64,000 nucleotides of DNA from Dictyostelium discoideum (GCA_000004695.1 CM000150.2:4736001-4800000), one strand, 5' to 3'; positions 39,297-40,725 are shown, counted from the first letter of the stretch. A program made the numbers and translations. The notes: generated from the letters alone by a model not told the origin.

Positions 39297-39362
39297 ATTT
39301 TATTTTATTTTATTTTATTTTATTTTATTTTATTTTATTTTATTTTATTTTATTTTATTTTT
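39297..39362. repeat. (TTTTA)13 pentanucleotide microsatellite.
   Basis: ATTTTATTTTATTTTATTTT... sits between the upstream end of the 37468..39096 gene and the VPS13-like fragment. Confidence 0.9.
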
Positions 39363-39381
39363 TCCCATTTTTCTATTATAT

Positions 39382-39669
39382 GCTGCTGTTACTTTTGAAA
39401 GTGGTCTAACAACATTCAAAAATGTTGCAGGAACCCAATCTTCAATTGTTGGTTTTTTATCCCCTCTGGCTTATAGCATTCATTTCAATAATGGAGGTGT
39501 AAAGAATTATATCACTTTAATAACAAATCTTCGTATTCTCCTTGTTAAACGAATAAAGAATAGTTACTCATTCAGATGGTCTTCAACTTTTGAAAATATT
39601 AAATCTTGTGAAATCACTCCAGACGGTTTACTATTACACTTTGAACATCTTCAAAGATGTGGATTATAG
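39382..39669 (+). pseudogene. Orphan open frame (about 95 codons, no ATG, no flanking splice signals) resembling the C-terminal PH-like region of VPS13/ATG2-family lipid-transfer proteins. Likely a gene fragment.
   Basis: AAVTFESGLTTFKNVAGTQSSIVGFLSPLAYSIHFNNGGVKNYITLITNLRILLVKRIKNSYSFRWSSTFENIKSCEITPDGLLLHFEHLQRCGL* resembles the VPS13 C-terminal ..ASKTFEGIRN...Y.I.LTN.R.L.V......W.I.L..I... region. It is more GC-rich than its surroundings, sits immediately after a (TTTTA)13 repeat, and terminates prematurely. It is not in the ORF track because it lacks a start codon. Confidence 0.35.
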
Positions 39670-39886
39670 ATCTCAACATTGTATTCATATCACAAAACCT
39701 GATCAATTCTCTATCTCAACTTTATTTAATTATTAAAGAACAAATTTTAAAAATTAAAAACTAAATTTATTTACTACCATACTAAATTTTTTTTTTTTTT
39801 TATTTTTTGGAGAATTCAATAAAGAATATAATAATGGTGTTTTCAAATAAAATATTTGTCTTTTTTTTAAATAATAAATAAATAAA

Positions 39887-40174
39887 TTGACGCATACCCA
39901 CCCATCCAATCCATATGCTTGATACCTAAAAATACTAAATTTAAAATATTTATTATTATTCTGTTTTTGCCTAAAATTTTATTTTTTTCTTTTTATTTAT
40001 AATTATATATAATCCTTTCCCTATAAAATATAAAGTATTTATAACTTACCTTAAAGTTCAATGGACCACCACACCTAATACATACATTAACAACTACTTC
40101 ACCTAAAGACCACATGTTGACGCATACCCACCCATCCAACCCTATATGGTTGATACCTTTAATACTAAATTTAA
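39887..40174. repeat. Pair of 58-bp direct repeats at 39887..39944 and 40117..40174, about 90% identical with a 230-bp period, flanking an A/T-rich spacer.
   Basis: TTGACGCATACCCACCCATCCAATCCATATGCTTGATACCTAAAAATACTAAATTTAA versus TTGACGCATACCCACCCATCCAACCCTATATGGTTGATACCTTTAATACTAAATTTAA. This is unusual GC-rich sequence for this genome. Confidence 0.8.
40048..40160 (-). pseudogene. Protein-kinase subdomain IX-like fragment ending at a canonical GTAAGT donor. The segment encoding GLDGWVCVN is duplicated 230 bp away.
   Basis: The minus strand reads ..KGINHIGLDGWVCVNMWSLGEVVVNVCIRCGGPLNFK|GTAAGT. MWSLG(V)V.....G..PF is the kinase subdomain IX signature D.WS.G. No upstream catalytic subdomains are present within 1 kb. 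Confidence 0.3.
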
Positions 40175-40725
40175 CTTAGTAGAAAAATTGATTTAAGTTA
40201 TTCAAGAAGAAGACAATGATGAAACCCAATAATATGATAAACTATTTTAAGAATCAAATAAATATAGACTTTTTAATTCACAAGGTGGAGTTTTTAATGT
40301 CGGTTTATCTCCCATAATTTTTTATAAAAAATCACCAATAGCGTTTCATTAAAGAATCATCATATTACATTTTTTTTTTTTTTTAATAAAAATATAAGAA
40401 TCTATTTAAAAATCAGTAATTTAAATTAAATTTGGAAATTAAAAAAAAAAAAAAATTCAACTGTGTAAATGAAGCAAAGTGATTACAAACAATATAAAAC
40501 TATTTAATTGAAGTTTTTTTTATTTTGTTTTATTAAATTATTAATAAATTAATTTTTTTTTTTTTTTTTTTATTTTGGTATTAACAAATAATATTATAAT
40601 AAGTTAAATTTTATTAATTTGTTTTTTGTTAGATTTACAAAAAATAAATTAAGTTAAATTTTTTTTTTTTTTTTTTGTTAGATTTACAAAAAATAAATCA
40701 AAAAAAACTTAAAGTTTTGCTAATT

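Follow-up and report, generated by a model that had tools for sequence, protein, structure and literature searches.

How did a patch of comparatively G+C-rich DNA come to lie in an A/T-rich gene spacer of Dictyostelium discoideum, and does any part of it still function? The patch (positions 39360-40200) belongs to a stretch of 64,000 nucleotides (GCA_000004695.1, CM000150.2:4736001-4800000; hereafter the window) and is located within a 1.7-kb spacer between the 5' end of a gene for a 542-amino acid (aa) protein (minus strand, ATG at 39096) and the 3' end of the Sec16 gene (stop codon at 40808). A preliminary description of this DNA had pointed to the decayed exons of at least two genes, one related to VPS13 and one encoding a protein kinase, together with a local tandem duplication. 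According to the comparisons reported here, the region is, with a probability of roughly 0.8, a non-functional remnant composed of the truncated, frameshifted, and interrupted tail of a VPS13 pseudogene and a short duplicated scrap.

The VPS13 assignment starts from a 95-codon open frame on the plus strand (39382-39666), in which a likeness to the VPS13 C terminus and the absence of a start codon had already been recognized. Both observations were confirmed: the frame matches the Pfam family VPS13_C (PF25037) with 24.9 bits (E 2e-5), above the curated cutoff of 21 bits, and contains no in-frame ATG, GTG, or TTG. It stays open further 5' through an (ATTTT)n run to ~39286 (127 codons), and the frameshift-corrected peptide scores 25.8 bits against the same family. 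No match to the 95-aa frame was returned from 5.8 billion proteins searched by word index, and HMMER, applied exhaustively to 1.84 billion representative proteins, yielded a single credible one, a 4478-aa protein (E 6.4e-7 library-wide) that is a gene model of the dictyostelid Synstelium polycarpum (EukProt EP01133_P005870); the other three of the four matches were bacterial repeat proteins and were discarded. In BLASTP, residues 31-92 of the frame align with residues 3210-3270 of Synstelium VPS13 at 47% identity (E 7e-15). The Synstelium model itself looks like a prediction in which VPS13 (~3330 aa) is fused with a downstream IPT/TIG-EGF-type membrane protein, and its tail matches a gene located at 11753-12709 (+) in the window (24% identity, E 1e-17).

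The frame had been regarded as an isolated orphan, a view that did not survive a wider comparison. When the VPS13 part of the Synstelium model (residues 1-3330) was searched against the whole window by tblastn, four segments were found at 37065-39709 (+), collinear, on one strand, and in three frames, and the N-terminal and central regions of VPS13 were not found. A profile hidden Markov model (HMM) of 50 VPS13 C-termini detected three significant pieces and none elsewhere in 35060-40800. The segments assigned to the relic are as follows.

36981-37178 (+), relic piece 1, ..KSIIYIKLLNPIKVILSFSFFRDGFVGHSNSDFVGILLEVVGVLF; residues ~2903-2949 of Synstelium VPS13; profile HMM independent E-value (iE) 1e-7
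37156-37272 (+), relic piece 2, in a frame other than that of piece 1, FGVLDRIPLCLNALILEHPFLLELLFAIRIKS; residues 2943-2979
37273-37392 (+), strongly decayed continuation, IIGSLQFGNNFQG followed by a stop codon, vs VIGSSDGLGNPVG; read by eye, weak profile HMM match (iE 0.027)
39382-39666 (+), 95-codon frame for the PH-like C-terminal region of VPS13, ending at a premature TAG (39667-39669)
39659-39709 (+), the same VPS13 domain continued in another frame, VDYRSQHCIHITKPDQF vs Synstelium VDYREQYTIHLADKDQL; residues 3275-3291
39710-39764 (+), possible domain end in a third frame, SLSQLYLIIKEQILKIKN followed by a stop codon, vs MQLYIIVFYKRHL; a visual match only, not significant alone

Identity to Synstelium VPS13 is 60% in the left part of the relic and 49% in the right part, equal to or higher than that of other family members. 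In tblastn, piece 1 (at 37065-37178) aligns with residues 2911-2949 at 59% identity over 39 aa (E 4e-12) and piece 2 (at 37159-37272) at 53% identity over 38 aa; piece 2 was also detected by the profile HMM (37156-37242, iE 8e-5). The change of frame between the two pieces indicates a frameshift near 37170, and a three-frame reading revealed an in-frame TAA near 36922 and several extra frame changes in 37250-37400. The continuation at 37273-37392 appears to belong to the relic, with more frame changes and stops. The left part of the relic (~36.9-37.4 kb) contains several frameshifts and stop codons. Pieces 1 and 2 (36981-37272) sit 2.2 kb 5' of the 95-codon frame on the same strand. In the annotation of a second assembly (GCA_054883475.1, see below), 36925-37332 (+) is listed as a 99-aa gene (11765-12172 of the matching stretch) that covers the frameshifted left piece; this gene call is probably spurious.

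In the right part, the profile HMM piece extends over 39469-39690 (iE 1.4e-10), and the same profile gave no match on either strand of 39700-40800. The second tblastn segment (39659-39709, 53% identity) is collinear with the 95-codon frame and directly adjoins it. The Synstelium domain goes on with ...LLLHFASLQRIQMLVDYREQYTIHLADKDQLMQLY..., whereas the frame in the window halts after LLLHFEHLQR-CGL and a stop; within the PH-like domain, ~4 codons are missing and a shift of frame falls at 39657/39659. The right part lost these codons and its frame just before the C-terminal helix of that domain. The sequence from 39382 to ~39764 (+) is thus most probably the 3' end of an inactivated and fragmented VPS13-family gene copy, of which approximately the last 15% survives. 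An AlphaFold model of the 95-aa frame contains five confident beta strands (predicted local distance difference test score, pLDDT, ~90 for residues 40-90), and the closing helix is out of frame. The best Foldseek matches of the model in the PDB were PH/PTB-type domains (kindlin, talin F3, and a bacterial PH domain), with root-mean-square deviations of 2-2.6 Å and E >0.5 in all cases. The predicted fold is compatible with a truncated PH-like domain and adds no proof.

These lesions are also present in a second genome sequence. Contig JBTAPE010000039.1 (3.2 Mb) of the NCBI assembly GCA_054883475.1 contains an exact match of a neighbouring gene product and is 99.74% identical to the window over 27435-49116. 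Over 36400-40900, the two sequences are the same save for 13 nt of poly-A length (window 40727), so that, if both assemblies have independent origins, the lesions are not assembly errors. No gene call falls in 39100-40795 in the annotation of GCA_054883475.1.

The base composition of the right part of the relic is that of coding DNA rather than that of the surrounding spacers, and the preliminary description was right in calling the patch less A/T-rich and in stating that no open reading frame (ORF) of at least 60 aa is present inside 39360-40200, the longest being 51 aa.

39382-39709, 95-codon frame and its out-of-frame continuation; G+C 0.32
40050-40175, second G+C-richer segment; G+C 0.37
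Spacers around these two segments; G+C 0.11-0.14
Real exons in the window; G+C 0.25-0.34
39293-39361 (no strand), (ATTTT)n microsatellite, noncoding, adjoining the right relic piece on its 5' side and leaving the frame open

From the exon-like G+C content of the relic pieces and their 47-60% identity to the VPS13 of a distant dictyostelid, we infer that the copy died fairly recently, not anciently. A third, slightly G+C-richer patch at 40200-40350 (0.24-0.28) contains only 33- to 41-codon open frames and gave a chance-level match to the bacterial sRNA model caiA (E 0.26).

In D. discoideum, six VPS13 paralogues are present, namely Vps13A-F, of which Vps13C is TipC, and they share 25-40% mutual identity (PMC5484366). 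The relic resembles this family of bridge-like lipid transfer proteins in matching VPS13_C, in being 47-60% identical to the C-terminal ~400 residues of its closest relative (Synstelium EP01133_P005870), and in keeping the block order LNPIK..SFSF, LILEHPFL, IGS..GN.G, PH-like strands, LLLHF, and VDYR. It differs in that it comprises only about the last 15% of a protein of >3000 aa, lacks a start codon, is interrupted by ~2 kb, and is disrupted by in-frame stops and by frameshifts, of which at least two are clear and several more are likely; it cannot encode a lipid-transfer protein. The intact long ORF with an N-terminal chorein region, a repeating region, and a VAB domain that is required of a functional VPS13 is not found in the relic, and we infer that function has been lost. 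In its homology, truncation, frameshifts, premature stops, and absence from the gene calls at 39100-40795, the relic is similar to the unprocessed (duplicated or unitary) pseudogene fragments of compact eukaryotic genomes; in contrast to retro-copied pseudogenes, it has neither a poly-A tail nor any other hallmark of retro-copying. The only matches obtained with the Synstelium C terminus were short VPS13 tails of metagenomic or transcriptomic origin, and the two that were checked are on contigs with 41-47% G+C and thus do not come from this organism. Nothing usable on a Dictyostelium VPS13 pseudogene was found in the literature.

The second component of the region lies downstream of the relic and consists of the segment with the highest G+C content and a direct repeat.

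39887-39944 (no strand), direct repeat copy 1, in pure A+T surroundings, with a 1-nt deletion relative to copy 2
40117-40174 (no strand), direct repeat copy 2, at the right end of the G+C-richer patch 40050-40175 (125 bp)
40044-40172 (-), 41-codon open frame with GTAAGT at 40049-40044; peptide KFSIKGINHIGLDGWVCVNMWSLGEVVVNVCIRCGGPLNFK, no detectable homology

The repeat, which had been described as a 58-bp pair 230 bp apart with ~90% identity, is genuine: the alignment of the copies has 59 columns, 89.8% identity, and a single indel of 1 nt (E 4e-15), and both contain an identical 23-nt core (TTGACGCATACCCACCCATCCAA). The accompanying proposal of a local tandem duplication holds insofar as the 58-bp unit was copied locally, but a 230-bp unit was not duplicated in tandem, as the other 172 bp show no similarity. 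No third copy was found in the 64 kb. Scans of metagenomes and of bacterial and archaeal genomes with the core gave no match, which is no real test because a Dictyostelium genome is unlikely to be included in these sets. The patch at 40050-40175 has no similarity to VPS13 or to a gene that neighbours VPS13 in another organism, and it was ruled out by comparison both as the missing middle of VPS13 and as the relic of a gene located beside VPS13 in another species. The 95-aa and minus-strand peptides matched only themselves in tblastn, and neither has a parent gene in the window. A small non-coding RNA was considered as well, including a U1-like one (the complement of GTAAGT resembles the 5' end of U1), and was rejected: no Rfam family reached its gathering score in the window, none was credible at E ≤10 in 39200-40500, and RNA folds were no more stable than those of shuffled sequences (z-scores -1.2 to +0.05). 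A scan for bacterial-type promoters and terminators, which has no relevance for a genome of this kind, stayed at chance level. Most likely, decay or duplication of some other sequence left the patch and its 58-bp copy as a further scrap, and the 58-bp unit could have been copied by a repair-associated duplication of a short segment.

Alternatively, the 58-bp units, duplicated 5' of the 542-aa gene, may be cis-regulatory modules, with TGGGTGGGT as an example of their G/C-rich boxes, or may serve small RNA genes as promoter elements. Gene regulation in Dictyostelium is known to involve G-rich or CA-rich boxes, and the small RNA genes of this organism have an element with CCCA upstream of them; two identical 23-nt cores have here been kept in a spacer with 12% G+C, 0.8-1.0 kb 5' of the ATG of the 542-aa gene. 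However, the core does not exactly match the (A/T)CCCA(C/T)AA upstream element, no Rfam RNA or structured RNA is nearby, no usable binding (G-box) consensus was found in the literature, and the 90% identity of the 58-bp units speaks for recent copying, not for selection. A regulatory role is therefore considered unlikely.

The 542-aa gene, which lies between the two halves of the relic, is itself the source of another alternative.

37468-39096 (-), 542-aa ORF splitting the relic halves; called as a gene in GCA_054883475.1

Its product is rich in low-complexity sequence (polyN, polyQ, (SE)n, and Lys runs) and contains an H-x3-H-x25-C-x2-C motif (LRKAHGTKHYQRWSMDRNVKKLYFYSQWNHIQTFCDECD) that matches Integrase_H2C2 at E 0.069 (profile positions 5-58/59), below the Pfam cutoff. 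Judged from this motif, the gene might be retroelement-derived. Together with the A/T-rich DNA upstream of it, the gene accounts for ~2 kb between the relic halves, vs ~0.5-0.7 kb of VPS13 coding sequence expected there. No terminal repeats or target-site duplication were found at the junctions (37200-37520 and 39080-39480), and comparisons with the core of the gene gave neither a paralogue in the window nor a relative in the PDB. In an improbable scenario, the gene descends from a retroelement integrase and, by landing in an extra (seventh) VPS13 paralogue, killed it; the open PH-like frame or the G+C-richer patch, both upstream of the 542-aa gene, might now be of use to that gene, whether in its promoter, in its regulation, or through expression of a small peptide. 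Two repeats of a AACCCATTTT motif at 39205-39238, ~110-140 bp 5' of the ATG of this gene, may be a promoter element.

Might the 95-codon frame still be functional, either as the last exon of a real gene or as a PH-like microprotein in its own right? It has stayed open for 95-127 codons with an exon-like G+C content, its five beta strands are confidently predicted, and the AG at 39399-39400, preceded by a pyrimidine-rich tract, could provide a splice acceptor. Nevertheless, it has no start codon, and an upstream exon is impossible because the adjoining 5' DNA is the promoter and 5' end of the gene on the opposite strand. The C-terminal part of the domain is present but out of frame, the collinear VPS13 pieces upstream are full of frameshifts, and the annotated assembly has no gene call here. 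A functional frame is accordingly a very unlikely explanation.

Much the same assessment applies to a gene model that can be drawn on the minus strand, in which the patch and its partial copy would form a small lineage-specific gene with two exons for a ~63-aa hydrophobic peptide. Exon A (40113-40050, starting with ATG) would be followed by an intron of 124 nt (40049-39926, GTAAGT...TTTTTAG), a size typical of Dictyostelium, and by exon B (39925-39800); with GTAAGT as donor and a T-rich AG as acceptor, the two frames join in phase, and the reading closes at a TAA. The model was made after the fact, though, and exon B has a G+C content of 0.24 and is largely of low complexity. The product has no homologue, the annotated assembly contains no such gene call, and the unspliced 48-aa ORF has no record in any assembly. 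Such a gene is hence highly improbable.

It had also been proposed that a small non-autonomous mobile element, having taken up fragments of host genes, left its footprint here, and the juxtaposition of host-gene scraps with a short repeat pair, as well as the weak integrase-type H2C2 motif in the gene between the relic halves, would be in line with this. The proposal was not borne out. The VPS13 pieces retain their parental order, spacing direction, and strand over 2.8 kb, as expected for decay in place. At the junctions, there is no target-site duplication and there are no terminal repeats, inverted or direct; the inverted repeats found are only of the A/T low-complexity kind. Beyond its two copies, the 58-bp unit does not recur in the window, nor does the core of the 542-aa gene. 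Moreover, tRNA genes, the usual targets of Dictyostelium retroelements, were not found in the window. This origin is barely tenable.

The weakest proposal reads the minus strand at 40172-40050 as what is left of a protein-kinase exon (subdomain IX) with a genuine splice donor at its end. The peptide is similar to subdomain IX of the kinase catalytic domain (D-x-W-S-x-G) in having W-S-L-G followed by hydrophobic residues, with GTAAGT directly after it, in DNA with a G+C content of 0.37. The reported D.WSLG signature was not confirmed, however: the sequence reads VNMWSLG, with Asn at the position of the invariant Asp, and there is no APE-type segment upstream. The peptide matched neither Pkinase nor any other Pfam family at E ≤10, had no word-sharing candidate homologue among 5.8 billion proteins, and had no match at E ≤10 in the PDB, which holds many solved kinase structures. 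Its motifs are at roughly chance level in the window, where WSLG was seen once vs 0.2 expected in the six-frame translation, D.WS[LFVAIM]G did not occur in the same translation, and GTAAGT was seen 25 times vs 21.6 expected. By our own estimate, made without a tool, a 41-codon open frame would arise at this base composition in one of six frames with a chance of ~1/4. Of the peptide said to end at a donor, the GTAAGT at 40049-40044 is present; of the exons said to stem from at least two genes, the VPS13 remnant stands, whereas a kinase parent, with all homology tests negative, is not supported.

Several points weigh against a VPS13 pseudogene with an adjacent duplicated scrap. The independence of the two assemblies is an assumption. 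The frame is still open over 95 (127) codons and strongly VPS13-like, which could reflect residual constraint, and this frame or the minus-strand frame may yet be expressed. The relic may be either a duplicated fragment of one paralogue or the remnant of a lost seventh one, and the patch at 40050-40175 is without an identifiable parent.

Base composition, gene content, and the best VPS13 match all fit a Dictyostelium-type social amoeba: the window is extremely A/T-rich and carries long ORFs with polyN/polyQ runs that code for eukaryotic proteins. The large neighbouring genes encode Raptor, ORC3, leukotriene-A4 hydrolase (LTA4 hydrolase), Sec16, and a DOCK/zizimin-type exchange factor.

The region is thus best seen as common debris of gene decay; it helps annotation but has little wider meaning. 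A supposed kinase pseudogene can be dropped from consideration as spurious, and its short motifs are a reminder that combinations of the WSLG plus GTAAGT type arise by chance in A/T-rich genomes. In its place, a previously uncalled VPS13 pseudogene has been identified, the left piece of which was probably miscalled as a 99-aa gene in one public annotation. For the VPS13 family, the relic means that its six-member complement in Dictyostelium either once included or gave rise to at least one additional, partial copy.

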